DNA from: a virus
Taxonomy: Duplodnaviria; Caudoviricetes
Length of the DNA stretch: 64,000 bases
IMG/VR virus record: IMGVR_UViG_3300028888_000006
Coordinates: 1 to 64,000 of that record
Strand: one strand, 5' to 3'
In this document: piece after piece, positions 3,542 to 19,205 of the stretch
Numbering within the stretch: position 1 is the first letter of the stretch
Layout: each line of letters opens with the position of its first letter
Program-made: the position numbers and the translations under genes
Notes under the pieces: generated by a model
The model's database searches: none
What the model was told of the DNA's origin: nothing
What the model saw: the letters and a program-made list of their open reading frames with translations, nothing else

Positions 3542-3778
3542 ATGAGCAAGGCAGAAGAACGAGCATTGGTGGCATATCCAGATTATCCGACTATGGATGG
3601 AGGATATGTTACTCAAAGACGGCCAAGAAAGGTATTCGTTCAAGGATACAAACAAGCCGAGAACGACATCATCTCAATCATCGGAACACGCCTCTCCGAA
3701 ATTATCGGTGATGCACAACCGAAACCCGCACTACGGGCAGAACTGGAAGACCTAATCAAACAAATTAAGGATGAATAA
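3542..3778 (+). CDS. hypothetical phage protein
   Basis: MSKAEERALVAYP...FVQGYKQAE pattern common in Bacteroidales phages; strong SD. Confidence 0.7.
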   Translation: MSKAEERALVAYPDYPTMDGGYVTQRRPRKVFVQGYKQAENDIISIIGTRLSEIIGDAQPKPALRAELEDLIKQIKDE

Positions 3779-4208
3779 GGTGTTTCTATACAACGATGTG
3801 TCCGGCTATGAGAAGGAATACCAGTCGGTAAGCGAAGCGGCGAGGATTCTTGGAATACCTCGCTCACAACTCGAATACGCGATGCGGTCTGGCAAAAAGT
3901 TGTGCGGGTATCTTATCCGTTCCTTCTCCGTCCATTCTAAGGAGGTGAAGATAAGCAATGACCCGGTTCGTATCGAACTGGACATCCCGCATTATGCAAC
4001 AATTGAGGGTAAACACTTTGTGGCCGTCAAGTGCGAGAACAAGACGAAATGCTCTGAATGCGACATCTTCAAACTCGACCCACCGATGTCTATGATTCAG
4101 TCTCCATTGTGCTATAAGTACAACTGCGGGACGCACAAGATTGTAGATGTTTGTTCAAGATACAAGTGTATATGGAAAAGAAAACGAAAAAGTACATCAT
4201 TGAAATGA
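3771..4208 (+). CDS. NUMOD1-like HTH plus Cys-rich domain protein
   Basis: EYQSVSEAARILGIPRSQLEYA...LCGY resembles a NUMOD1-type HTH; CSEC and further Cys residues in the C-terminal half. Confidence 0.6.
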   Translation: MNKVFLYNDVSGYEKEYQSVSEAARILGIPRSQLEYAMRSGKKLCGYLIRSFSVHSKEVKISNDPVRIELDIPHYATIEGKHFVAVKCENKTKCSECDIFKLDPPMSMIQSPLCYKYNCGTHKIVDVCSRYKCIWKRKRKSTSLK

Positions 4209-4959: not shown

Positions 4960-5395
4960 TTTGATTGAGAGATTGTCTTGGCAAGACATCAAGGAGATTG
5001 ATGAAATTCTTTTTCAACTATGTAGTGATGACTTTTGCGATGAGGAAGAATATTATTCCAAAGTGATCACAAGGTTGAACAAGCAGAATAAAACACTGCC
5101 AGCTTGTAAGGATAGGTACAAAGAAATCCTTCCGATCGCTGAAAGTATCGTTGGTGAGAAAAACCGGAGGGAGCGAACATTTGAATTGACTGTTCTTAGA
5201 TGCATGATTGCAAGTCGCCTTAAAGAAGAGGGGTATACGCTCACAAATATCTCAAAAGCAATGGGTTATGATCATTCCACGGTCATATTCTATTTTAAGA
5301 AAAAGGCAGACTTCTTTGCCCTTCCGCTGATGTACGAGCGAGAAGTAAGATGGTTCAAAGCATTTGATGAAGCGTTGAAAAATGAAGGAAATTGA
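4949..5395 (+). CDS. HTH protein with DnaA C-terminal-like motif
   Basis: GYTLTNISKAMGYDHSTVIFY resembles the DnaA domain IV 'rDHSTV' signature. Confidence 0.65.
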   Translation: MKADLIERLSWQDIKEIDEILFQLCSDDFCDEEEYYSKVITRLNKQNKTLPACKDRYKEILPIAESIVGEKNRRERTFELTVLRCMIASRLKEEGYTLTNISKAMGYDHSTVIFYFKKKADFFALPLMYEREVRWFKAFDEALKNEGN

Positions 5396-5594
5396 AACAA
5401 CCGAACAGTCCATGTACACAATCATGCGTGAGATGGACCTCAAAACTAAACTTATCGTTTCAATTGACAGCTGGACGCTGGCAAGAAATTATGCATTAAT
5501 TCTCGAGAAAGATTTTGGTGTCAAGTTTCGAGTCAGAAGAATGCAGACAAGAAATACGAAAAGAAACTTCATTCTTGTCGAGCGCATCCGTTAA
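5382..5594 (+). CDS. small basic protein, possible DNA-binding protein or excisionase
   Basis: 70 aa with Arg/Lys-rich C-terminus; convergent with and overlapping the integrase 3' end. Confidence 0.5.
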   Translation: MKEIETTEQSMYTIMREMDLKTKLIVSIDSWTLARNYALILEKDFGVKFRVRRMQTRNTKRNFILVERIR

Positions 5595-6804
5595 CAAAGT
5601 CTATAACCGTTCTATTGGCAGCATCCACGGCCTGCTGATTGAATTTGACATATATGAGGGTGGTCCTATTTCCCGATGAATGCCCGAGTGCCTGTGAGAT
5701 GACATCCAACGGGACACCCGCTTCATAGGCAAAGGTGGCCCAGCAATGGCGTGCGTAGTAGGTGGAGATTCCCGGAATGACGGGCTTGACGGTTTTTATT
5801 AGTCGTGGTGTACCGAACAGGTCCTCGGGGTCCGGGACCATCTCCACCACTTCCTCGCCTATCATCTTCAGGTGGTCGTTCATTTCGTGGGCGAAACTTT
5901 TATAGTGTTTGCATCCATCCATCGCCATAAGGAGATAGTTACTGCCCTTGTATCTTTTCAGGAGTTCCTCGGCTTCCGGTTCTATCCGGATCGAATATTT
6001 CTTGTGCGTCTTCTCGCGGATATACTCGAGGCGTCCGTTTACTAAATTACCCTTGCGAGCCAATAACAGGTCCTTGGAGTTGATTCCGATGAGATAAAAC
6101 ATGAGGAGGAAGTAGTCTCGGAACATTGCGTTCCTTCCGGATGCCGGATAGTCGAGGAACTTTCTGAAGAGTTCCACCGATACGCTCCGTTTCCTTGTCG
6201 GTTCCTGCCTGATGGAGAAGTTCTGGAACGGATAGGACGAGATGACATTCGTGTGCAGTGCGTAGTTGCACACCGCCCGGAGACTCCGGAGATAAATTGC
6301 CCGACCATTCACCCCCTGAGTCTTCGCCAAAAACATCTCGAACTGATGAAGCCATTTCAAATTTATGTTTTCCATCTTCAGTGCCTTACCTCCGAACGCA
6401 AGCACTTTCGCGAGAGTCGTACGATAGATTTCTTTCGTTCCCTCCGTAATATCGGTCGCAAGATATTCCGCAAACAAATCTGAAACAAGATGAACTGGTT
6501 GAATAACTTTCTTTTCCGTTATCGCCTGCTTGATTTGTGGGGCCGTCATTGAATCGAATTTATCATCTATGGATAGATAGGCAATAGACTTATCGATGGA
6601 TGATTTCTTCTCTGTTAATCTTGCATTAATAGCATCACAACCGGCTACACGAACAACATGATTACCATCCCATTCATTCGGCTTTACGCGAATACCGGTA
6701 GGAATCATAGCCGTAGTCCGATTATGATAGATAGTGATGACGATGCTTCCTTTCCCGTCCTTCGCCTTCCCGCGAAGATCCAGGTAAAACCTTGTTGTTG
6801 CCAT
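5569..6804 (-). CDS. int: tyrosine recombinase / phage integrase (Bacteroidota type: arm-binding, SAM-like and catalytic domains)
   Basis: N-terminal FYLDLRG..KDGK..I.I.I.HN...IPTGI.V...EW arm domain; catalytic GIN.KD, YIREKT, TYYARHCWAT, ALGHS, TTLIY. ATG 6804 lies just downstream of a TAnnTTTG promoter. Confidence 0.93.
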   Translation of the reverse strand: MATTRFYLDLRGKAKDGKGSIVITIYHNRTTAMIPTGIRVKPNEWDGNHVVRVAGCDAINARLTEKKSSIDKSIAYLSIDDKFDSMTAPQIKQAITEKKVIQPVHLVSDLFAEYLATDITEGTKEIYRTTLAKVLAFGGKALKMENINLKWLHQFEMFLAKTQGVNGRAIYLRSLRAVCNYALHTNVISSYPFQNFSIRQEPTRKRSVSVELFRKFLDYPASGRNAMFRDYFLLMFYLIGINSKDLLLARKGNLVNGRLEYIREKTHKKYSIRIEPEAEELLKRYKGSNYLLMAMDGCKHYKSFAHEMNDHLKMIGEEVVEMVPDPEDLFGTPRLIKTVKPVIPGISTYYARHCWATFAYEAGVPLDVISQALGHSSGNRTTLIYVKFNQQAVDAANRTVIDFVNGCARQE

Positions 6805-6820
6805 ATTGCGTGTGTTTGGA

Positions 6821-6828
6821 CAAATATA
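6821..6828 (-). promoter_or_regulatory. Bacteroidota primary-sigma -7 element (TATATTTG) for int
   Basis: Matches TAnnTTTG, 17 nt upstream of the int ATG. Confidence 0.65.
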
Positions 6829-6837
6829 TAAATTTGT

Positions 6838-7079
6838 CTGCAAACAATTCCGCATAGCGTCATATGAGCCTGGAAGATGGATGTAGAAACAAAAATCCCG
6901 ATACTCAAGGTAATGAAACTAATCAAATGCTTGAATATCAGGACTTTACGATGTGGAGATAAGGGGATTCGAACCCCTGACCCCCTGCTTGCAAAGCAGT
7001 AGAACTCTCCGCTTAATCACATGACAGTCACATAAATACGAAACCGCAGAAATTATCCTGCAAAATATTCTGCAAAATG
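6838..7079 (+). repeat. candidate integrase arm-type sites, CYGCA(A/G/T)A direct repeats flanking attP
   Basis: CTGCAAAC 6838 and CCGCATAG 6850 on one side; CCGCAGAA 7044, CTGCAAAA 7058 and CTGCAAAA 7070 on the other; 12-14 bp spacing. Confidence 0.55.
6954..6999 (-). other. attP core: 3' half of tRNA-Ala(UGC)
   Basis: Minus strand CTGCTTTGCAAGCAGGGGGTCAGGGGTTCGAATCCCCTTATCTCCA comprises the anticodon arm (TGC), T-arm (GGTTCGAATCC) and acceptor 3' strand with U70/A73. No D-arm or 5' acceptor strand upstream; 150 bp from int. Confidence 0.88.
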
Positions 7080-7310
7080 TACTCGTTTTTAGAACAGCAT
7101 AACGATGGTAGCTGGTGGTACCATCCGGGATGCACTTACGAAACAGAAGGGAAAGCAAAACAGGGATTCAAAAAGATGTTTTGGTGGGATTTAGACAGAC
7201 CGCACAAAATCATATCGCATTCGATTCCTTTCCCTCAAGATATTTCTCGATGCACATTTGATATGGTGCATTTCAATTTTGCTGGTGGAAAATTTTTTAC
7301 ATTACAATAA
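7077..7310 (+). CDS. hypothetical protein (Trp-rich)
   Basis: ORF track; tightly packed with the next genes. Confidence 0.55.
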   Translation: MYSFLEQHNDGSWWYHPGCTYETEGKAKQGFKKMFWWDLDRPHKIISHSIPFPQDISRCTFDMVHFNFAGGKFFTLQ

Positions 7311-7311
7311 A

Positions 7312-7491
7312 ATGAACGACTTGATTTGGAAGAAGATTGTTCCCGGTAAGCAATATGATGAACAGATTCTGATGATCGATGTGACTCATCGCAATTATCC
7401 TAGAACTGGATTCGGTAACCGCTGGATGGGAACAGCAACGCACTACATTCCTGTGAAATTGTTGGAGAACATCTTGGAATACGAGAAATGA
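7312..7491 (+). CDS. small hypothetical protein
   Basis: ATG 7312 directly after the preceding TAA; ATGA-coupled to the next gene. Confidence 0.55.
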   Translation: MNDLIWKKIVPGKQYDEQILMIDVTHRNYPRTGFGNRWMGTATHYIPVKLLENILEYEK

Positions 7492-7961
7492 ACTACGATC
7501 TGACAAACAAAGAGAACAGGAAACGTTTCATCAATCGATGCAATGCTCTCCTGAAGAATCAGCGGAACAATGTCTGTCTGATTGATGAGTCCAACAGAAC
7601 TCTGAATCAGAACAGATATATCCATGTATTATGTAGGATACTTGCACAGGATGTCGGAGTTTCTGAGGAGTACGCCAAGCAGGTTTACTTTAAGGAATTG
7701 GCAAATCCGAATATCTTCATCACCTGCACAAAGGATCCGCTAACGAATTCATTCATCAAGATTACCCGAAGTACCGCAGATCTCAACATCAACGAGATGA
7801 GAAAGGCAATTGACGGGTTTATCCGGTGGGCGGCGGAAAATGGTTATGTGTTGCCTGAGGCTACGCTGAATGATGATGGAACAATGACATTCAATGACGA
7901 CCAGAATAATGAAGCGTTCCATCAAGCGGAAATTGAAACAAGTAAGGAGGAATGGATATAA
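7488..7961 (+). CDS. NinB/Orf-like recombination-associated protein
   Basis: RTLNQNRYIH and RSTADLNINEM...IDGFIRWAAENG.VLP match the NinB/YbcN-type pattern. Confidence 0.65.
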   Translation: MNYDLTNKENRKRFINRCNALLKNQRNNVCLIDESNRTLNQNRYIHVLCRILAQDVGVSEEYAKQVYFKELANPNIFITCTKDPLTNSFIKITRSTADLNINEMRKAIDGFIRWAAENGYVLPEATLNDDGTMTFNDDQNNEAFHQAEIETSKEEWI

Positions 7962-8107
7962 TGGATAATACATTGATTGGAATTGATGAGTTCGATGAAT
8001 TGAGAGATAAGTTGGAATCCATCATTCTGCAATTCGCAGAAAGACATTTTCACGGTGTGTCGCTCAAGATTGAATTCGTATTTGGAACGATAACGATAGA
8101 AGTATAA
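7961..8107 (+). CDS. small hypothetical protein (48 aa)
   Basis: Hand-translated MDNTLIGIDEFDELRDKLE...; TAATG coupling; ends at the terminator. Confidence 0.5.
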   Translation: MDNTLIGIDEFDELRDKLESIILQFAERHFHGVSLKIEFVFGTITIEV

Positions 8108-8231: not shown

Positions 8232-11200
8232 TTAATATTGCGCATCATTCTGATAATAGTTAATAAGCGGGCTTGGATCTATGAAATTGTCCACTTTCTT
8301 AAACATTGAAACAACTGGCAACTCACGGAAATATTTATACGCCTTGACATGCCCACGGTATCTACCGGATTTGATTGTCGTCATATAATTTGACGGGATG
8401 CACAGCTCAAAAGCGTTGATCATATTCTGGAGAGGGCCAATTGCCGCGAACGGAGATTTCAAGATATGAAGCGCCTCATCAACAAACATGGGCGTCGGTG
8501 CCATCGAACCTATTTCCGTGCGAAGTCGTAACATTTGCGAAAGAATCGTCTGATCCCACCATTTAAGCGGAATAAGTCTATCGTCATCATCGACATCGGG
8601 CGGCGGAATCTTTCCAAGAAGCATGCAAGCAAGATACAGTCCGGCAACTGTCGCGAGTTCAGCAATGGAGCGATGCACATTGGACTTCTCGTAAGGTGTC
8701 ATCTTTGCCCAGTTCAACTGATAGGAAGTCTTCAGCGCCTTCATGTCGTCGACAAGTCGAGTCAAGAATTCTGCACTTTGCTCTTCTGACACTTGATCTT
8801 TTGCTCCAGTAACTATGTCATGAAGCAAACGGAATGTGGTATGATGATAGCCCTCGTTGTATTCACCCTTCAAGGCATTGTACTGAACATCGGCGTATCT
8901 GCGTTTCAAAGCAGGAGCAATCCATTTACGATACATGATGAGCAGCGATCCGAGAGCGTATTGCTGAACAGCACTGCGGTCATCAAGATTATAGATACCC
9001 TGTAGCTCAAAGTTCAAACCGGCGACAGCCTTGGAGAATTTCTTCTCATCCTCGATTGTTAACTCACTTCCGTCGGCTTTTCTGTATCCAGGTTTTAGCG
9101 CGAGATAAGCGCCGGTCTTGTTTGTCTCATCAGTATACTTGACTTCATAAGCATCCCACAAGTTACTTTCCTTGCCTTTAGCATCCTTCATCTTGAAGTT
9201 TTTCGCAACAGCAAGTGCGGTAGTGGAAGCAAGGAAGTCTTCACCCATAGTCAGACCAGCATACAGAAGGCTGCTGTTGAATACGCGACTTGCTCTTGAC
9301 TTTTTGTACTTCGTGGTCTTATAATCACGACCATTGTCCTGATGAACATCAAACTTGTCAAGCCAGAGTGAGAGCTTATTATCATAATCGGTCTTACCGG
9401 TTTCTGCAAGTCTATCTGCGGACTGTGCGGTCCAAATACCAGCCGCCCAGGTCGCGTCTTTAGCAGAGAAATGATGATGACCGACAGTTTCCAGAAGAAT
9501 CTGTGTGACACCGGTGCTGATATTAGCAATACGCTGCGGAATATTGATAGCCATCTGCGAGTAAGAAGTGACTCGATTGATGAAATCAACAGCCTTTCGC
9601 TTGGAAATCCTTGTGTTGCCGATGGTGCCTTCATTCCGCTGGATATGTCCATAGACATGCATCTGGAAGAAATCATCAAGAGCGCTTTCGATGTTGGTTC
9701 GAGCCTGTTTCTTACTGAACGGCTCACGATAGATAACATCGTCTGTCTCGATGCTTTCGCGCTGCGTTCTCGTGCCAGTACGCTGAGTCACGTCTCGCTG
9801 GGAAGCCATATATTTGGCATTCTCAAGGATACCGATGACATTATTGAGTTCACCATATTCGAACGCCATACCAGCATAAGCCATGATGGAGGTGGCTACA
9901 TCATCAGACATGTCGTCATAGGACTCCTTCTTTCCCTTGGCAAGATAATGGACAGGAAGCATATCTACGCGATTGCCTTCGAAGTCGACTCTGACTTCGT
10001 AGTTATCGTAGTCGATGCTGTCGGAAGTATCAAGGATATCATTACGGATACCTTCCCAGACTTCTACGGCTTTGCTCTTGATACCGTCAGACTCCTTCAC
10101 GCGGTCCCAAGTGTACTTACGAAGCATTACAATCTTACGATTCTGAAGGAGAGAATCAGGGACATACTTGTCTGCCTCCTTCTTGATGTCAAGCATCGTA
10201 TTGTAGAACTTCCACTTTGCGGGAGAAAGCTTTCTGGCTTCTTCGACACTGATATATCTACCAGTCTTGTGAAGCTTGCCGTCATCTTTCTTTCCGTCGC
10301 ACCATTTCTCTCCATCATAACGCTTCATCTCAAACATGAAACTCTGGTCACGAGAGCCGGTTTCCTTACGAAGTTCTTCAATGGCCTGTTCAATTCTCGG
10401 CTTCACAAGGGCAGCACGACGACGCGCTGAATACTTTGCCTCCCTGGTTACATCGTCAATCGCCTTAAGAACATAGTCGTTACAGTCAGCGATGGAATGA
10501 AACCAGCGAGAAGCAAGAGATATGTCTCTGTCAGCACGGCGGGCCATTTCCTTGATGGTAATCTGCCGCCCCTTGTCTTTACCAATTTCGACAGTAACTC
10601 CATGTTCGCCATAGACATTGGAAAGCATCTCTTCGAAATACTTCATCGCAATCGTATTATAATAGCGGAAGAATTTCTCGAGAGCACCAGCAGTTTCATT
10701 GATGGAATTAGTAAGCAGAACGGAATCCTGAATCTCGCCATCAACAATTGCCTGGCGGACATCTTCCATCACCTTAGAGAAACTGTAAAGCGTATCACGG
10801 ACAAGATTTAGTCTCTTGCAGATACGATTTACCGGCTGACCACCATTTACCGCAGTCTCAAGTGCCTTTCTTGTTTCTTCCAAGAAGTCCAAGGAGTCCT
10901 TCATGTAAGTGACGACGGCGTCTTCGGTCTTGTAGTTCTTGATAGCGGCTTCGAGCTTGGCAATCTGTCGTTGAGTTGCCTGAATAGCGGGAGACTTCTG
11001 CGCCTTCTCCTTGTCGTAACCGATACGGTTCTGGAAAATGAACAGACGCTTGGTCTCGGTCTTCAGAAGCTTGTTCAAAATGTCGCTCTTTCCGGTCAGA
11101 TCTTTCTTGATCTTCTTCGTCTGTGCGAGCAGTTTACCTTGTGCATTAATATCCTGTAATGTGCGATCATCGAGAATCTTCCCACCGAGAAGTTCACGGG

Positions 11201-14200
11201 CAAGCTTGGAAGCGACACGATTTGCATCGAAGATAGCATTCTGCACTTCGTCACGACGGAACTGGCGGAAGAAATTCTTGATGAAATCCACAACTCTATG
11301 GATGAGTCTACGAACAGGGCTCGTCTCGATTTCCTGTTCCAAGAACAGGTTCTTCGCGACCAGTTTTCCAGCTGCTTCAAGAACCATCTTTTCTCTGTCA
11401 TCCCGATATGCTTCGACGTAATCATCGTACTGACCTTCGAATGCTTCACGGAGAGCGTCTTCATTTCCATCAAGAGCGTTAAGAAGTCTGCTTACAAGCG
11501 GATTGTCGTGACCAACCATCTCGATGGCCAAGTGAGAGAATTCTTCCGGTAATGCCTGCTCGCCACGATAGCCTTCCGCAATGCGAATCATCTCAAGCAA
11601 TCCTTCCGCTGTAACAGTCGCAGTGTCGAAGTCCGTGACGCCAGCAAGAGCAATACGAGTCTCGAAGTCGGTAAGAACACCGACGGACACACCTTTCTCG
11701 CGAAGGATATCACGAAGCTTCTCATTCAGTTCGACATATACCTGCTGTCTTCTTGCTTCGCGGATACCGGCAGGAGAACTCGGAACATTTACAGTAATCG
11801 GATTACCGTCTTGATTGCGACGAGCAATGGAAAACATCTGACCACCAGTCGGCTCATCATCAGAAGTAGAAGTGCCAAGCATGGCTCCCTGCAATGCAGG
11901 ATTGGCAGCAAAGAGCGCAGATAAATCTGCGCCAGTTGCGGGAGAAGGAGCGGGCATTTCCCCATTCTGCTTCACGGCATCGGCGGCTTTCGCTTCAAAT
12001 TTACGAGTCTGCTCCACCTGTTGAGGCTTCGGAAAACCGCTGATTGCGGGCCCACCCATCACAGAAGCAGGGCTAGGCAGTCCACCGAAATTACCAACAG
12101 TACCTCTGCTCTGACCAGGACCACCGAATACCTGTGCAGGACTAGGAAGACCGCCAAATGAATTAGCGTATTCCATAAAGTCACTTCCAGACATCGGGTC
12201 CCCACTCGAATTAGATTGAGCCCAAGCATTTTCTTCGGGTTCATCAAGAACGCCCCACGCAGAATCATTACCCGGAACAACCGACTCTATGAATAGATAA
12301 CTTTCCTTCGGATTATACTGAAGCGTCTTCTGCCCGCCACGAAGGACAATGCCGAGTTTCTTGGCAGGAACAATGGTTGTTCCATCGGCTTCTTTAACAA
12401 CGCGATACAGCTCCTGTTTCTTTTTTCCTTCACCGAGATTGGTCTCTACGACTATATAGCGATAATCTTCGATCTTGAACTTTGAATCATCTGTCAGTAA
12501 ATCCCAGCCAAGTTTGTTGCGAACGCGATTCGGAATCTTCGCCGGGCTTATCTTCGGGAGAAACTTGTTGTCTCCCCAGTGATTCATTATGTACTGATTG
12601 ATGAAATTCTCTTCCTCTTCACTTCCATCAAGCCAGTTGTCACGAAGGATATCCTGAAGCGCATCGACATAACCAGGGGTATTCAGTATGACCGAGAACG
12701 GAGCGAAATGCGCGAACTCGTACATTCCATATCCGAAGCCGCTGTTGAACAGGTTGTATTTGAACAAGTCAATGGCAAGGTCTCGGATTTCCTTTTCCGG
12801 ATTGTTCAACATATCGCCCCAGTATGCGCGAATAGCATCAGCGGTTCCTTCGACTGCCGGTCCGTTCATGCTGAAAATGAGGCGAGGATTGGTACGGGAA
12901 TTCTCCGGAGAAGTCGCAGTAAGCTTCTCGAGGAAAATATTACCGACAAGCATTTCAGCCGCCTTGTCAGTTCCAGGATTCTGCTTTGCCTTCTCGATTC
13001 TCTCTTTCAGATCCTTGACCGACTTCGGTACATCAACGAGAATGCGTTTCTGTTCGGCCTTCAAGTCGCCATTGACAAACTTATTATTCTTCAAGAGCTT
13101 GAAGAGAATCATCTCCTGACCGATATGCTCGACAATAGTAGCACGCTTCTTCTTACCGATATGATACATATCGGCAATCTTCGAAATCGTGTTGATCCAG
13201 TCGGCTTTTGCCTGCGGGAAGAACTGCTTGAACATATCAAGCGAAGAATCCATCATCAGGGAATTCAGCGCCACAACTTCCTTGAGATCGTCACCAAGAG
13301 CGGACATGATGTATTCGGAATCCATTCCAGCATCGACTGTCCTTCTTGCAAGAACATCACGCATGCCGCTGATTCTCAATTGGTCATCGCGCTGCTTCAA
13401 AACTTTTTCACGGAACTTGTTGAGGTCGATGACCTTCTGCGTGATATCTGCAATGGTAGAGCCTATTGCGCCGGAATCAGATTCGGGTCTGGTACGGCGA
13501 GTAAACTCGGCAAGATTACCGGCTGCATCGGAAAGATGAGCAAGCACGGCGAGAATGGCGGTTTGCTGATTGATGAGATTAACATCCTGCGATTTCAGAA
13601 CCTCGTCAAAAGTCATCGGAAGAGCGGCAATGTAATCATTCTCCATCATACCTGCGACCGCCTGAACTGCACCGGTATTCTTCCCCATGAACGGAAGCCG
13701 CTTGTCTTTGAACTGTTCCTGCAACTGGTCAACGAGCGTATTCGCCTCTTCCTTGAGAGAAGAAGCATCACGGCCTTTTAGCCTATTGATGAGTTCAACA
13801 ACCGCAGGCTGATTCATAATCAGATGGACTTCTTCCTCGTCGATACCTGCGGCGAAAAGGAACGAAGTGATTTCCGCCATCTCCTTTGTCTGATTGAGAT
13901 ATCCGAGAATAGGATCCTTTCCGTTATCAACGGCTGCATTCAGCAGACGAGCAAGACCGAGAGAAGCGAGATTGCCCTTCATGTTCTTGACCGAGAACAA
14001 CTGACCAAGTTCTTTTCCAAACAGAGATATCCGGACAGGGCCGTACTTTGTCTGCATCGGAACATATCTCATATCAAGTCGCTGCATCATCTGCTGGGCG
14101 GAATTATACAGGGCGTAAATACCAATCATCTCGGCGCCACCCATCAGATAGTCGAAAGCGTCAGCGGAATGCGTCAGAGAATACGGGGCTTCCGAGCTCT

Positions 14201-17200
14201 CAACAGAACGGACAAGCGTAGTCAAGGCGAAGTCATCCAACGATGTCAGTTTCTTGTAGAGAGAAACGGCGTCACGAAGAGCAGCGTTCGCAATATCTGA
14301 AGACATTCCAAGTCCGCCGTCTTTCTTTGCGGTTGTCATCGTCTGGAACATCTGACGCTTGTTTTCATTGGATCGGGCAAGACGGACAAGATGCAGGGAC
14401 TTGGCATAAATCTTCGATTCCTCGCAGCCACCAGGAATAAGAACGCGACGAGAGCCAGCGACAGAAGTCAACTGAGCTCGAGTAAGTTGAATCATCCTGT
14501 TGTGACGAGCACGAGCGGAGTTTTCAAGCGGAGACTTGGACTCGTCGTATTCGACCATCTTGACCTTACGGTACTTCATTCGGTCAGGATTGGAATAACT
14601 CGTAGCCCACTTCTTCCAGGTATTGAATCCGGCAAGAGCTTCATTCAAATCTTTGTTACGGATATTGCTCAATGCAAGGCGAGCTGCATTAGCATCGTCA
14701 GACAGACCAAGCAACTTATCGTAGTCGGCATTCAACTTCTCGTCATCCCAAACGACATCGTATTCTGGCAAGTCGACACGAAGTTTATCACCATCGAAGT
14801 CCTGACCGGTTGTGACCATCGCTTCTTTGGCAATCTTCATAGAGCCGCCTTCGAGTCTGGAAGAGAACCATTTGATGCGAATCGGAACGGTTGAATGTTC
14901 GGCGTCAGAAGGAGTACGGGAAGCATCTCCAAAAAGCGCTTCTTCAGGGATTGTCCTGTTGTCTATGAGCTCCCGAAGTCTTTCCGGAGTAATCTCGCCA
15001 TTCTCGTCAGCAAACTCACGCAACGCATCCGGAAGCGGAGCACCAGCATCGAACCATTTCAGACGCTTGTTCTTTCCAGTACCTTCGAATTCCACTCCGA
15101 GTTTATAACTCTCGGGAAATCCACCCTCGTAAGGACTGACATCGGCCTCCATGCCAAGAGCCGTAGAGACAAGGATGTTCGTTCCTTTAGTCTTGATCTT
15201 CGTCATTCGCTTCTTAATGATGGAAGCGAGAAGCTGCTGAACCTGATGCTCGACATTCGGAGAGAACAGCGGCATTGCGAATGTTCCGTTCTTCAAATGC
15301 TGAAGAGCGAACTTCATTTCACGAGACTGATACGGTTTGCTCGCCAATTCTTCCTGGAACAGTCTTTCGAGCTCGTCAGAATTGCTGAAAATTTCCTGAA
15401 CCTTCTTATACGAATCGATGATATTGGCGGTCTTGATTTCGTAATACATCTGTCTCGCTTCCTTTGCGGACATCTGCTTTCCGTTCAGCTCGACCATATC
15501 GCCATCCTGGATGTTCGCCCAGACGGTCTTCTCCTTCTGTGAAGCGCGGGCAATTCTGTCATCCATTCCGTGAGGAGTAGTGGACGCGGCGATACCGTAA
15601 TACTTGAACGGGATCTCGTGGACATACCATTTCTTCGACGCAACGGTACTCGTGATATAGTTCTTGATAGACTGTTCGTCTTTCAGGATATGATTGCCTT
15701 CTTTGTCTCTCTCGAATGGACGAATAATGGAATGAGCGCCGACCTTTGCACCGGAATGGAAGAGAAACATATCCACTTCTTTTCCTTGCTTCTTCAGTTC
15801 AGACTGCGCCAGGTCAAAAGCACGAAGCGGAACGGACTGGGCTGACAGACAATATTTAGACAGAGCAACAGGGAGAAGGACAACCTCGGAATACTTGTGC
15901 AAGAAAGTCAGTTTGACAGGTTTCTGATTTTCACTTTCCGCAGCATCAATATGTTCAAAGCCCGTAGCAACCGGCTTGATATTCTGCATGAAAGTATCGA
16001 TATCTCCTTTTTGCGGATGTCCGTGAATGATATTCTGATAAGCGGTTTCCTGTCGTTCAGTCCAGAGATCGGTCATCACCATCACGGACCGATAGGATTC
16101 GAGCGTTCTGAATCCCTGACCATCTGTGGTCTTGATATCAGAATATGCTTTCTCCATCTGCTTGTACTGGATTGGAGAGATTAATTTCGCATCAAGCAGA
16201 TCCTTCAACATGCCGAGGATGTCGTCCTTGAAAGCAGACTGCGTTTTCTCGTCAGCCACATACACAACATTCTGACTTTCTTTTCCGACGCGCTCTCCAT
16301 TCCAAGTAGCCTTGGTGTACAGAGAACTGTGAGGAGCATGCGTCAGCATATTACGCTTCTCGAAGTCGATGAGTCCGTCGAAGTTATGCAGACCGCCATC
16401 CCAGAGTTTCACCATCTGAAGACGAGCGTAGAAAGTATTGAAGAACCAGTCGTCCAACTGACGCTGCTTTTCGGCGGACAGAGAAGAAACCTTTCCATCT
16501 TTCGAATAGAAACCGTAACTGCGAAGATTATAATTCTTCAACATCCCGGAATCTTCGACGGTCTTGATGTCTTTCTCTTTAATTTTCGCCAACTGGTCCA
16601 CAACGCTCTGTTTGACGAACCGTATTGCATCGGCGGGATCTTCAATGGACTTATATTGCTGGCGAAAATCGTTCGTATTGAATTCCGGGAATATCTGGAA
16701 CTTCATTCCGTTCTTCTCATAGACGGAAAGAACAGGACGATTCTCGCCGTTCGGATCGTTCTTGACACGTTCCTCGATGGCGGCAATGCGATCAAGTTCG
16801 CAGAGAACTTCATCGGCAAGAGCATCAACTAATTCAGACTGATAACCGTATTCGCCAGTAGACTCATCAAGCAGTTCGCCAACTTTCAGTCTCGGAGCGT
16901 AGATAAAGTTATATGCCGTCGAGTAGTCAGACTGGATAGGAAATTCATATGCGGCAAAAGGCTCTGTTCCACGGGAGAACATGCGTGACGCTCCGAAGAA
17001 CTGGATGAGCGAATTCGTCAGTTTCTGCTCTCGTGTAAGACTGGCATACTCAACATGATTGAACGCCGCGATATCCACAAGACGCATCGCACTGCGAATA
17101 TCTGTCTGGCGAAACTTGCCGTCTTTGAGCCATTTCAGCCAACCGACAATCTGTCTGTTTTCCCCATTTCCGATTGCCATCCCTTCATAGCGGAGATATT

Positions 17201-19097
17201 CCTGCTCGAGCCTTTCCTGGTATTCCTCTTCAGAAAGATGATCGGTGTTTGCGAGAATGTCGAAAACCTGATGAAGAAGGTTGGTGTTATTGTATGTGGA
17301 CATAGACTTGCCGTCGTTGTTCACGCGGGCCTCAACCTCATCATACTTCGCAAGAGAAAGACAATTGTTGATATGTCGCAATTCGTCAGCGGCGGTGTTG
17401 TAGAAATACTGTCCAGTCGTCTGTTTGCCTTCTTTTGCCACCTGCTCGGCACGAGCGAAAGCATTATCCATCCAAGAAACAAGCTGATATAGCTTATTCC
17501 TGCCAACAAGATTCTTGACATTGCTCCAACCGGCAGTGAAGCCGTAACCTTTCTTTGTCATCGTCTGCCCAGCAATCACGGAGATATCCGAAGGACTGAT
17601 GGAGAATCCGAGACCGCGAAGATACTTCGACACCTGAATAGGCACTTCCGGATGCTGGCGAAGATATTCCTGCATCGCCTTTTCGGGGGCAAGAGCCTCA
17701 TAGTCATGAGCGGTATGCTTCGGCGGCTTGTCGCCTTCGACCATACGAATGTTCTTTGTTCCGTCGAGAATATTGTCCTTCAGTTCGCCAAAAGACTTTC
17801 TGATCGATTGAATCGCAGGAAGAGATTTCAAAGAACCGAAACCGACATAAATACTAGTATCTTCATCGAGCACATAACCGGCTTGCAGGTTAGTGCCAGC
17901 CTCGCGCATCAACGAATGACCCTGCGAACGTGTATTTGCAATATGCGGGGTATATGCTCCATCTTCAAGATTCGTATAAACATAGACGGATGCAGCCTTC
18001 TTGAAGTTACAGAAAGTAGTCGTCTGTAATCTCGGATTCGCCTCCAACTGACGGATGAATTCGTGAAGCAAAGGGTTCTGGTCAGCGGCAGCATACAGAT
18101 CTTCCATCATTGTATCAGGAGTAGAGTTCGTAAGAGCCCGAGTAATTACAACAGCCGCCTGACGAGGGCTCAGCCACTTACCAACACCAAGGTCGTCTTT
18201 CTGCCATTTGCCACTCGAGTCAGTCTTCTTGATACGACTCAACATCCGCTTGGCACGAGGGCCAAGAGTCTGCATCAGCTTGAATGTACGGAAATCAGCA
18301 TAGCGGTCTCCCTTGCTTGATTCTTGATTGTCGGTCTCTTCTCCGTCCACTTCATTGTCGAGAGGCTCGTTCAGATCTTCCTCATCTTCAAAGTTAACTT
18401 CAAGATTACGGACATTGACGACGAATCCTTCATCCTCTCCAATCTTTACTGCGGCTAACGCGGCAAGCCTTTCCTTGTTGTCAAGAATAGTCTGATACTC
18501 GCCATAAGTATATTCTGCACGCTTCTGAGCCGCGGCTCTCATTTCCGGAGTAGCATCAGGACGCTTACGCTCAAACACAGCCATCATAGCTTCAACGCTC
18601 GGATACCGTTTTGCATAGGTATCAAAAACACGTTCCATGATGACAGTGAAACCGTTCTTCTTGCCATCCGCTTCGTCCTGAATCAACTGCTGACGAGTCC
18701 GTTTTCTCGTATCATCTCTTTCCAGTGCATCTAATTCATCACGGAAATCACTGGCAAGCATGTCGATACGAGCATCCAATTGCTCTGGAGTATACAGAGT
18801 GTACAAGGTAGTATACATCTTGTTGATGTCATCCCTGTCAGCAGTCGCTGTTGTCTGCGTAAGCTGGGCACGCTTGAGCTCATAATTCAGGAATCGCGTA
18901 AACACGCCCATCTCTGATGGAGTAGCAGGAATCCAATCGTCCTCATATTTGTCGTTATGCCTACGCTTAAAAAGCTCGAGCGCCTGAACGAGATGTTCAT
19001 CGTTCCAGTGCCTATCGGCATAGTGTTCCTTAAAGCCATTGAATCTCGGGTCTCTCCGATAGAGAGTCAGATCAGGACAAAGATCGCCTACAATCAT
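8232..19097 (-). CDS. giant virion-packaged two-barrel RNA polymerase (crAss-like vRNAP) fused to a large C-terminal cargo region
   Basis: ~3,620 aa; DFEKR, TDGQG, FLHKYS, SGAKVG, RTP and GQDFDGDK motifs in the order seen in crAss-like vRNAPs; zincin-like LPEEFSH in the C-terminal part. ATG 19097 follows a TAnnTTTG element. Confidence 0.88.
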   Translation of the reverse strand: MIVGDLCPDLTLYRRDPRFNGFKEHYADRHWNDEHLVQALELFKRRHNDKYEDDWIPATPSEMGVFTRFLNYELKRAQLTQTTATADRDDINKMYTTLYTLYTPEQLDARIDMLASDFRDELDALERDDTRKRTRQQLIQDEADGKKNGFTVIMERVFDTYAKRYPSVEAMMAVFERKRPDATPEMRAAAQKRAEYTYGEYQTILDNKERLAALAAVKIGEDEGFVVNVRNLEVNFEDEEDLNEPLDNEVDGEETDNQESSKGDRYADFRTFKLMQTLGPRAKRMLSRIKKTDSSGKWQKDDLGVGKWLSPRQAAVVITRALTNSTPDTMMEDLYAAADQNPLLHEFIRQLEANPRLQTTTFCNFKKAASVYVYTNLEDGAYTPHIANTRSQGHSLMREAGTNLQAGYVLDEDTSIYVGFGSLKSLPAIQSIRKSFGELKDNILDGTKNIRMVEGDKPPKHTAHDYEALAPEKAMQEYLRQHPEVPIQVSKYLRGLGFSISPSDISVIAGQTMTKKGYGFTAGWSNVKNLVGRNKLYQLVSWMDNAFARAEQVAKEGKQTTGQYFYNTAADELRHINNCLSLAKYDEVEARVNNDGKSMSTYNNTNLLHQVFDILANTDHLSEEEYQERLEQEYLRYEGMAIGNGENRQIVGWLKWLKDGKFRQTDIRSAMRLVDIAAFNHVEYASLTREQKLTNSLIQFFGASRMFSRGTEPFAAYEFPIQSDYSTAYNFIYAPRLKVGELLDESTGEYGYQSELVDALADEVLCELDRIAAIEERVKNDPNGENRPVLSVYEKNGMKFQIFPEFNTNDFRQQYKSIEDPADAIRFVKQSVVDQLAKIKEKDIKTVEDSGMLKNYNLRSYGFYSKDGKVSSLSAEKQRQLDDWFFNTFYARLQMVKLWDGGLHNFDGLIDFEKRNMLTHAPHSSLYTKATWNGERVGKESQNVVYVADEKTQSAFKDDILGMLKDLLDAKLISPIQYKQMEKAYSDIKTTDGQGFRTLESYRSVMVMTDLWTERQETAYQNIIHGHPQKGDIDTFMQNIKPVATGFEHIDAAESENQKPVKLTFLHKYSEVVLLPVALSKYCLSAQSVPLRAFDLAQSELKKQGKEVDMFLFHSGAKVGAHSIIRPFERDKEGNHILKDEQSIKNYITSTVASKKWYVHEIPFKYYGIAASTTPHGMDDRIARASQKEKTVWANIQDGDMVELNGKQMSAKEARQMYYEIKTANIIDSYKKVQEIFSNSDELERLFQEELASKPYQSREMKFALQHLKNGTFAMPLFSPNVEHQVQQLLASIIKKRMTKIKTKGTNILVSTALGMEADVSPYEGGFPESYKLGVEFEGTGKNKRLKWFDAGAPLPDALREFADENGEITPERLRELIDNRTIPEEALFGDASRTPSDAEHSTVPIRIKWFSSRLEGGSMKIAKEAMVTTGQDFDGDKLRVDLPEYDVVWDDEKLNADYDKLLGLSDDANAARLALSNIRNKDLNEALAGFNTWKKWATSYSNPDRMKYRKVKMVEYDESKSPLENSARARHNRMIQLTRAQLTSVAGSRRVLIPGGCEESKIYAKSLHLVRLARSNENKRQMFQTMTTAKKDGGLGMSSDIANAALRDAVSLYKKLTSLDDFALTTLVRSVESSEAPYSLTHSADAFDYLMGGAEMIGIYALYNSAQQMMQRLDMRYVPMQTKYGPVRISLFGKELGQLFSVKNMKGNLASLGLARLLNAAVDNGKDPILGYLNQTKEMAEITSFLFAAGIDEEEVHLIMNQPAVVELINRLKGRDASSLKEEANTLVDQLQEQFKDKRLPFMGKNTGAVQAVAGMMENDYIAALPMTFDEVLKSQDVNLINQQTAILAVLAHLSDAAGNLAEFTRRTRPESDSGAIGSTIADITQKVIDLNKFREKVLKQRDDQLRISGMRDVLARRTVDAGMDSEYIMSALGDDLKEVVALNSLMMDSSLDMFKQFFPQAKADWINTISKIADMYHIGKKKRATIVEHIGQEMILFKLLKNNKFVNGDLKAEQKRILVDVPKSVKDLKERIEKAKQNPGTDKAAEMLVGNIFLEKLTATSPENSRTNPRLIFSMNGPAVEGTADAIRAYWGDMLNNPEKEIRDLAIDLFKYNLFNSGFGYGMYEFAHFAPFSVILNTPGYVDALQDILRDNWLDGSEEEENFINQYIMNHWGDNKFLPKISPAKIPNRVRNKLGWDLLTDDSKFKIEDYRYIVVETNLGEGKKKQELYRVVKEADGTTIVPAKKLGIVLRGGQKTLQYNPKESYLFIESVVPGNDSAWGVLDEPEENAWAQSNSSGDPMSGSDFMEYANSFGGLPSPAQVFGGPGQSRGTVGNFGGLPSPASVMGGPAISGFPKPQQVEQTRKFEAKAADAVKQNGEMPAPSPATGADLSALFAANPALQGAMLGTSTSDDEPTGGQMFSIARRNQDGNPITVNVPSSPAGIREARRQQVYVELNEKLRDILREKGVSVGVLTDFETRIALAGVTDFDTATVTAEGLLEMIRIAEGYRGEQALPEEFSHLAIEMVGHDNPLVSRLLNALDGNEDALREAFEGQYDDYVEAYRDDREKMVLEAAGKLVAKNLFLEQEIETSPVRRLIHRVVDFIKNFFRQFRRDEVQNAIFDANRVASKLARELLGGKILDDRTLQDINAQGKLLAQTKKIKKDLTGKSDILNKLLKTETKRLFIFQNRIGYDKEKAQKSPAIQATQRQIAKLEAAIKNYKTEDAVVTYMKDSLDFLEETRKALETAVNGGQPVNRICKRLNLVRDTLYSFSKVMEDVRQAIVDGEIQDSVLLTNSINETAGALEKFFRYYNTIAMKYFEEMLSNVYGEHGVTVEIGKDKGRQITIKEMARRADRDISLASRWFHSIADCNDYVLKAIDDVTREAKYSARRRAALVKPRIEQAIEELRKETGSRDQSFMFEMKRYDGEKWCDGKKDDGKLHKTGRYISVEEARKLSPAKWKFYNTMLDIKKEADKYVPDSLLQNRKIVMLRKYTWDRVKESDGIKSKAVEVWEGIRNDILDTSDSIDYDNYEVRVDFEGNRVDMLPVHYLAKGKKESYDDMSDDVATSIMAYAGMAFEYGELNNVIGILENAKYMASQRDVTQRTGTRTQRESIETDDVIYREPFSKKQARTNIESALDDFFQMHVYGHIQRNEGTIGNTRISKRKAVDFINRVTSYSQMAINIPQRIANISTGVTQILLETVGHHHFSAKDATWAAGIWTAQSADRLAETGKTDYDNKLSLWLDKFDVHQDNGRDYKTTKYKKSRASRVFNSSLLYAGLTMGEDFLASTTALAVAKNFKMKDAKGKESNLWDAYEVKYTDETNKTGAYLALKPGYRKADGSELTIEDEKKFSKAVAGLNFELQGIYNLDDRSAVQQYALGSLLIMYRKWIAPALKRRYADVQYNALKGEYNEGYHHTTFRLLHDIVTGAKDQVSEEQSAEFLTRLVDDMKALKTSYQLNWAKMTPYEKSNVHRSIAELATVAGLYLACMLLGKIPPPDVDDDDRLIPLKWWDQTILSQMLRLRTEIGSMAPTPMFVDEALHILKSPFAAIGPLQNMINAFELCIPSNYMTTIKSGRYRGHVKAYKYFRELPVVSMFKKVDNFIDPSPLINYYQNDAQY

Positions 19098-19118
19098 ATC
19101 TTCATATATTAAAACACA

Positions 19119-19126
19119 CAAATATA
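19119..19126 (-). promoter_or_regulatory. -7 promoter element (TATATTTG) upstream of vRNAP
   Basis: TAnnTTTG 22 nt upstream of the ATG. Confidence 0.55.
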
Positions 19127-19205
19127 TCGAAAAGAGCGCCCATGTTTTCAGGAGTAACAAGGACGCTTATTCAAAATCAGTATATTGATATGCTCAAGAA
19201 TTAGT

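Follow-up and report, generated by a model that had tools for sequence, protein, structure and literature searches.

Organisation of the locus

The window analysed here is the first 64 kb of an IMG/VR record of 98,613 bp, which is rated complete and has direct terminal repeats of 127 bp; the source phage is referred to as G000. The window encodes on its minus strand a tyrosine integrase of the IntCTnDOT type with 411 aa (int, 5569–6804), assigned from Pfam, PHROGs, and homologs. Upstream of the int start, at a distance of 148 bp, lies a 47-bp attP core (6953–6999, minus strand). The plus-strand genes of G000 run from ~83 kb via the ends of the record up to 5594, with small early genes at the end of this run. 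They are followed by int on the minus strand, three small plus-strand genes including a NinB homolog, and then a long minus-strand block. The small ORFs on the P-arm side occupy 7077–7961 (plus strand) and are the same neighbours in relatives; the one at 7488–7961 is a homolog of NinB-family recombination mediators by profile match. A giant ORF of 3642 aa (8232–19160, minus strand) is a homolog of the putative RNA polymerase genes of crAss001, with 27% identity over 70% of the query to the crAss001 features annotated as putative RNA polymerase or a subunit of it. An initial annotation of this DNA had placed phage genes on both sides of the module, and this holds, with the early genes on one side and the homologs of NinB and RNA polymerase on the other. 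The convergent gene at 5382–5594 and int share 26 bp at their 3′ ends (5569–5594).

The portal of G000 is 53–55% identical to the portals of cr128_1, IAS virus, DAC15, and Kolpuevirus/Kehishuvirus isolates. In PHROGs, the portal belongs to phrog_6547 (E = 1e-129) and the large terminase to phrog_6681 (E = 3e-97). By its portal, terminase, giant RNA polymerase homolog, and genome of ~100 kb, the source phage belongs to Crassvirales. The cultured relatives closest to it by portal belong to the family Steigviridae.

The integrase

The int ORF spans 5569–6855 on the minus strand; homologs agree on the ATG at 6804 as the start, and the product then has 411 aa. Pfam finds Arm-DNA-bind_5 (PF17293, E = 6e-8), Phage_int_SAM_5 (PF13102, E = 6e-12), and Phage_integrase (PF00589), the last with 27.1 bits, which is exactly the cut-off, and PHROGs places the product in integrase families. 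The ORF, this three-domain set, and the PHROGs placement bear out the initial annotation of a Bacteroidota-type tyrosine integrase. Among 14 control genomes, PF17293 matched in B. thetaiotaomicron only. A sequence search of the PDB with int gave only a weak XerC-like match.

No variation at the residues K265, R352, H375, and Y385 is seen across 41 aligned members of the integrase family. The canonical Arg I position is occupied by Asn (N242) and the His I position by Tyr (Y349), and both positions are backed by a pairwise alignment with a second integrase that carries the canonical residues. R258 and R263 are invariant in the 41-sequence alignment and could stand in for the missing Arg I, as reported for IntDOT, in which the canonical Arg I is likewise absent and conserved arginines lie further on (PMC8138268). 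Integrases of the CTnDOT type may be without the first arginine and use another further downstream (PMC8138268).

The search for homologs of int detected 487, many of them on contigs of 93–103 kb, i.e. of phage size. Against six relatives the dN/dS of int is 0.10–0.13, and the gene is under purifying selection. The nearest deposited integrases in the GenBank phage collection are 36–39% identical, and the named ones come from temperate Bacteroides phages outside the crAss-like group; no close homolog was found in any crAss-like phage of that collection.

The attachment site, its arms, and the int promoter

The attP core is identical at 47 of 47 positions to positions 28–76 of tRNA-Ala(UGC). It covers the anticodon stem and loop, the variable loop, the T arm, the 3′ strand of the acceptor stem, the discriminator, and the first C. 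Its 6954–6999 portion (minus strand) is present as an exact 46-mer within the whole tRNA-Ala(TGC) genes of the contigs L002 and L005. The 46-bp copy of the tRNA 3′ part described near int is thus real, and the identity in fact extends to 47 bp. No second copy of the core was found in G000. A whole phage tRNA gene at the core was considered and rejected, as ARAGORN finds none in the window. Outside the window, at 83247–83325, G000 encodes one whole tRNA-Met. By analogy with known sites, crossover would fall within the anticodon loop, where a 7-bp overlap had been placed by the initial annotation.

Each arm carries a pair of TTGCAGA-like direct repeats with a spacing of 12 bp. Those of the P′ arm (6837–6855, minus strand; single copies at 6837–6843 and 6849–6855) overlap the promoter region of int, and those of the P arm (7057–7075, minus strand) abut the start codon of the plus-strand gene at 7077. 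Paired motifs with the 12-bp spacing are present on both arms in every free-form relative that was read. The P arm has two motifs in most relatives and one in G000 and its relative L013, in which the second copy is one base off. The P′-arm group is present in nine of nine free-form relatives and is not found on the non-phage flank of the recombined contig L046 described below. The background of the motif is 0.44 per kb per strand, and the paired repeats are candidate arm-type integrase sites. As a genome-wide promoter element the motif was rejected, with 32 matches against 22 expected, and its exact copies in the genome occur only beside attP and at 8024. This third exact TTGCAGAAT copy (8024–8032, minus strand) lies in the gap that separates the RNA polymerase gene from the NinB block, ~1 kb from attP, and may serve as one more site for the integrase or for regulation.

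Between the arm repeats and the core, a conserved P-arm block (7000–7051, minus strand) is near-identical in G000, L004, L007, L008, L014, and L017. This is a putative accessory-factor site, to which such a factor may bind. A candidate −7 box of the TAnnTTTG type for int (6821–6828, minus strand), 16 nt before the ATG, was read from the sequence and recurs in most relatives read. The canonical gap between TTTG and the −7 box is 19–21 nt, and the nearest TTTG, by reading of the sequence, is 12 nt upstream. The earlier description of a host-type int promoter is therefore sustained for the recurrent −7 box and not for the spacing.

Conservation of the module among relatives

The position of int and attP, with the early genes on one side and the block of NinB and RNA polymerase on the other, is constant across all relatives examined, and the integrases of these syntenic relatives are 53–94% identical. 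The same 47-mer is present in G000, L013 (integrase 94% identical), and L003 and L008 (80%), where the flanks are down to 65–77% identity. A different T stem is found in L004 (94%), L007 (90%), and L014–L017 (75–79%), so that close relatives carry one or the other of two T-stem variants. L009 (70%) has the other T stem and both strands of the anticodon stem changed together, and the latter change is shared by L046; part of the variation of the core is compensatory. L012 and L023 (59%) have an altered acceptor strand, and L010 (53%) has the 3′ part of tRNA-Val(TAC) in place of that of tRNA-Ala. Such variants occur intermingled in closely related phages. The core therefore does not seem to be decaying but to be held in match with different target tRNAs. 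The int homologs on the mid-size contigs P0003, P0089, P0104, P0002, P0040, and P0031 are all in the free attP form.

Recombined relatives

The initial annotation had proposed a search for attL and attR junctions. Relatives that appear to be recombined at the same core were found (L046, L023, L024, L034, and L035), but no such junction was found for G000. Searches of 185,579 species genomes, metagenome contigs, and IMG/VR found no junction of its own core type; in IMG/VR, which was scanned with two variants of the core, all matches were relatives in the free phage form.

L046: This 113,451-bp contig (ENA ERZ28653738, WILK20-1_SAMEA7016614 scaffold_445) comes from a single assembly and is split into a phage side of ~98.5 kb and another side of ~15 kb. 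The order runs from the crAss RNA polymerase through NinB to a P arm and a core that resemble their counterparts in the free phage L009. Past the core there is a terminator with a 12-bp stem and then ~9.6 kb in which neither a P′ arm nor int is present. When this flank was compared with the whole G000 genome and all loci of relatives, no similarity was found. Its first gene is lipoprotein-like, from a family of >2000 homologs, some of them on contigs of up to 945 kb, and Bacteroidota is the commonest of the recorded phyla in this family. The flank gene has a 99% identical counterpart, P0331. Housekeeping genes were not found in the flank, and NCBIfam named none of its genes. L046 looks like the attR of an inserted prophage, of which one junction side is seen. 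Read in this way, it would imply that the unusual anticodon stem of the phage copy is present in the host tRNA as well.

Tandem junction: The second structure is present in four assemblies from at least two projects (L023/L033, L024, L034, and L035); the L023 contig is ENA ERZ28593074 LIJU20-1_SAMEA104395224 scaffold_175, of 121,594 bp. Here the integrase end of a 48-kb temperate phage is directly followed by 14 nt that form the end of the core, and then by the P′ arm, the crAss int, and the syntenic early genes of a relative. The 48-kb phage (L023 8419–9925; L037–L045) is common and unrelated to the crAss-like relative. Besides an IntDOT-type integrase of its own, it encodes a portal of the SPP1 type, a Phage_cap_E capsid, RecT, and a reverse transcriptase. 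The attP of its free form contains the final 14 nt of the same tRNA-Ala. Elsewhere the 48-kb phage is found inserted next to a bacterial GH97 gene, where the target has another sequence, and in L042 and L036 the sequence past its core is unlike the arms of either phage. The simplest reading of the junction, of which one side is seen, is that two prophages occupy one tRNA-Ala gene; the tRNA rebuilt by the crAss prophage would then be the target of the second phage. Alternatively, the 48-kb phage could have inserted into free crAss DNA. This is rated lower, because a cointegrate of ~146 kb would be well above the 93–103 kb contigs of the clade.

Repressor and excision factor

The initial annotation had called the module complete and had suggested that a repressor be sought in the rest of the genome. 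The word complete was an overstatement, since neither a repressor nor a clear excisionase was found: HTH_3 has no match anywhere in the G000 genome, and the profile searches of G000 gave only weak helix-turn-helix hints for an excisionase, although divergent regulators may be present. The sole candidate for a small DNA-binding or excision factor near int is a 145-aa protein (3771–4208, plus strand), which we regard as a lead only; it matches HTH_8 weakly (22.3 bits against a cut-off of 22), and HTH_17 is below its cut-off. In the relative L004, whose integrase is 94% identical, an HTH_3/HTH_19 gene (12378–12692) lies near int, and with the lack of an HTH_3 match in G000 this would make the candidate repressor variable within the lineage.

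Probable host

Of 185,579 species genomes, one contains the exact 46-mer, as do two metagenome contigs; each of these matches is a plain tRNA gene. The species genome has Spo0A and is without SusD, and is thus Bacillota-like; a contig with an array of ten tRNAs that also has the exact 46-mer is a weak Bacillota lead. The comparison of the 46 bp with tRNA genes, which had been expected to name a Bacteroidota host, has therefore yielded exact tRNA-Ala matches, but only in Bacillota-like contigs. In L002, a Bacillota-labelled MAG, a frame at 3–455 abuts the 3′ end of the matching tRNA-Ala (627–702). By eye it resembles a replication-initiator helicase, and it may mark another element inserted at the tRNA.

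Shine-Dalgarno motifs precede 6 of 71 phage genes, which is the background of random windows and is as expected for phages of Bacteroidota. Together with the integrase type and the nearest cultured relatives, which infect Bacteroides, this use of Shine-Dalgarno motifs leads us to infer a host within Bacteroidota. That the host is instead a Bacillota bacterium, as the exact 46-mer matches in Bacillota-like contigs alone would have it, we consider extremely improbable. The relatives known by portal and RNA polymerase infect Bacteroides, the arm domain of the integrase is of Bacteroidota type, the phage does not use Shine-Dalgarno motifs, and the flanks of the inserted relatives appear Bacteroidota-like. 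In addition, genes for tRNA-Ala(UGC) are commonly located inside rRNA operons, which MAGs tend to lack, and for this reason the tRNA-Ala gene of the true host may be missing from the collections. Two Logan contigs start 29–30 nt before the 3′ edge of the core. The Logan assembly graph has k = 31, and these starts hint at branching of the graph where a tRNA in the same sample, possibly that of the host, stops matching the phage.

Lysogeny and alternative explanations

We consider it likely that 5569–7075 serves a temperate crAss-like phage as a functional integration module in the style of lambda. The N-terminal arm domain of the integrase would bind the paired arm sites that flank the core, and its remaining domains would bind the core itself, i.e. 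the anticodon stem and loop of the tRNA copy. The integrase would then recombine attP with the tRNA-Ala(UGC) gene of the host. With the complete 3′ portion of the tRNA supplied by the phage, insertion would rebuild an intact tRNA at the junction beside int (attL), and the 3′ half of the host gene would be displaced to the far end of the prophage (attR). The record from which the window is taken would represent the excised and packaged form. The binding of the arm sites and the activity of the G000 copy are predictions from sequence. The branch of crAss-like phages with int and attP probably lysogenises its hosts, and for G000 itself this is probable. At the level of the lineage, the temperate reading of int and the tRNA-Ala attP in the initial annotation gains from the synteny, the selection on int, the core that tracks tRNA variants, the arm repeats, and the recombined relatives. 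For the clade, the balance of evidence leans towards crAss-like phages of ~95–100 kb, apparently from animal guts, that would be truly temperate. An IntDOT-like integrase whose active site is non-canonical would insert them into Bacteroidota genes for tRNA-Ala or tRNA-Val, and they would form tandem prophage arrays with unrelated siphophages for which the rebuilt tRNA is again a target.

The module could also be real while the recombined contigs reflect something other than crAss lysogeny, with L046 being a chimera or the product of homologous recombination over 47 bp and the 48-kb phage targeting the free crAss attP. This is unlikely on the evidence as a whole, even though only one junction is seen per structure and L046 rests on a single assembly. 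The 48-kb phage has the final 14 nt of this tRNA-Ala in its attP, and a full T arm would be available to it in the crAss core; yet the tandem junction shares only these 14 nt and the same join recurs across the four assemblies and at least two projects. A cointegrate of 146 kb would be far above the 93–103 kb of the clade, and its unbroken assembly suggests that the joined molecule is the main form in the samples concerned. The identity of 48 nt in L046 is shorter than the k-mers expected of such assemblers, and this explanation leaves the selection on int, the arm repeats, and the co-variation of the core without a cause. It is very improbable that int and attP are a cassette that was recently acquired or hitch-hikes, or a relic in decay without a role in the life cycle. 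In its favour, GenBank crAss-like phages have no close int homolog, the best phage matches reach 36–39%, and int is antisense inside a run of plus-strand genes. Against it, the module keeps its position down to 53% integrase identity, its dN/dS is ~0.1, and the core is perfectly kept where the flanks have diverged. The GC content of the int/attP module is 47.7% and that of the genome 46.9%, without a shift of composition that would mark an insert, and no repeats bounding int and attP were found. The relatives examined include none in which int and attP form a separately bounded insert, so the separate mobile element that the initial annotation had weighed against its own reading is probably not what this module is.

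Relation to known systems

The IntCTnDOT subgroup, with IntDOT of CTnDOT and IntN1 of NBU1, and the integrases of Bacteroides phages (BS-TP2, Bacuni F1/F2/F4) have the same PF17293-PF13102-PF00589 layout as int. To judge from the title of a reference in PMC8138268, NBU1 targets the 3′ end of a tRNA. In contrast to its IntCTnDOT relatives, int also has His I replaced by Tyr and is 36–39% identical to the nearest phage integrases. The carrier differs as well: here it is a Crassvirales genome of 98.6 kb, whereas those integrases are carried by an ICE, a mobilisable element, or a siphophage.

Lambda-type attP sites with the anticodon loop of a tRNA gene as their target were reportedly described by Williams in 2002. 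The G000 site resembles these in its identity from the anticodon stem to the 3′ end of the tRNA, in the location of int on the P′ side, and in the repeated motifs on both arms, and the tRNA would likewise be rebuilt upon insertion. It differs from them in that no excisionase was found for the G000 module and in that the crossover is placed by analogy.

With crAss001, DAC15, IAS virus, Kehishuvirus, and Kolpuevirus the source phage shares the portal, the terminase, the giant RNA polymerase homolog, and a genome of ~98 kb. Unlike the cultured and named crAss-like phages, which are described without integrase and lysogeny, the source lineage has int and attP. For crAss001, no integrase and no evidence of prophages were reported (PMC6235969), and according to a 2023 review the evidence does not support true lysogeny of crAss-like phages (PMC10136315). 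Later catalogue papers count integrase genes or ‘prophages’ among crAss-like genomes and do not describe the sites, and in one of these papers integrase modules are rare in Steigviridae. By title and abstract, the three papers found to name both ‘crAss-like’ and ‘attP’ deal with other subjects. New here are the synteny of the module, the selection on int, the variation of the core, the paired arm repeats, and the recombined relatives.

The mechanism itself is a classic one found in textbooks, and the interest lies in an under-described phage group with testable sites and contigs. The persistence of crAss-like phages has been debated for years, and int, the attP core, the arm sites, the target tRNA, and the named contigs make lysogeny directly testable. 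Moreover, int with attP is a possible tool for site-specific integration in Bacteroidota. An integrase homolog with 28.5% identity is also present at 79276–80424 of GenBank MT835494.1, an unannotated 99,778-bp phage record from human faeces, whose size suggests another integrase-bearing crAss-like genome.
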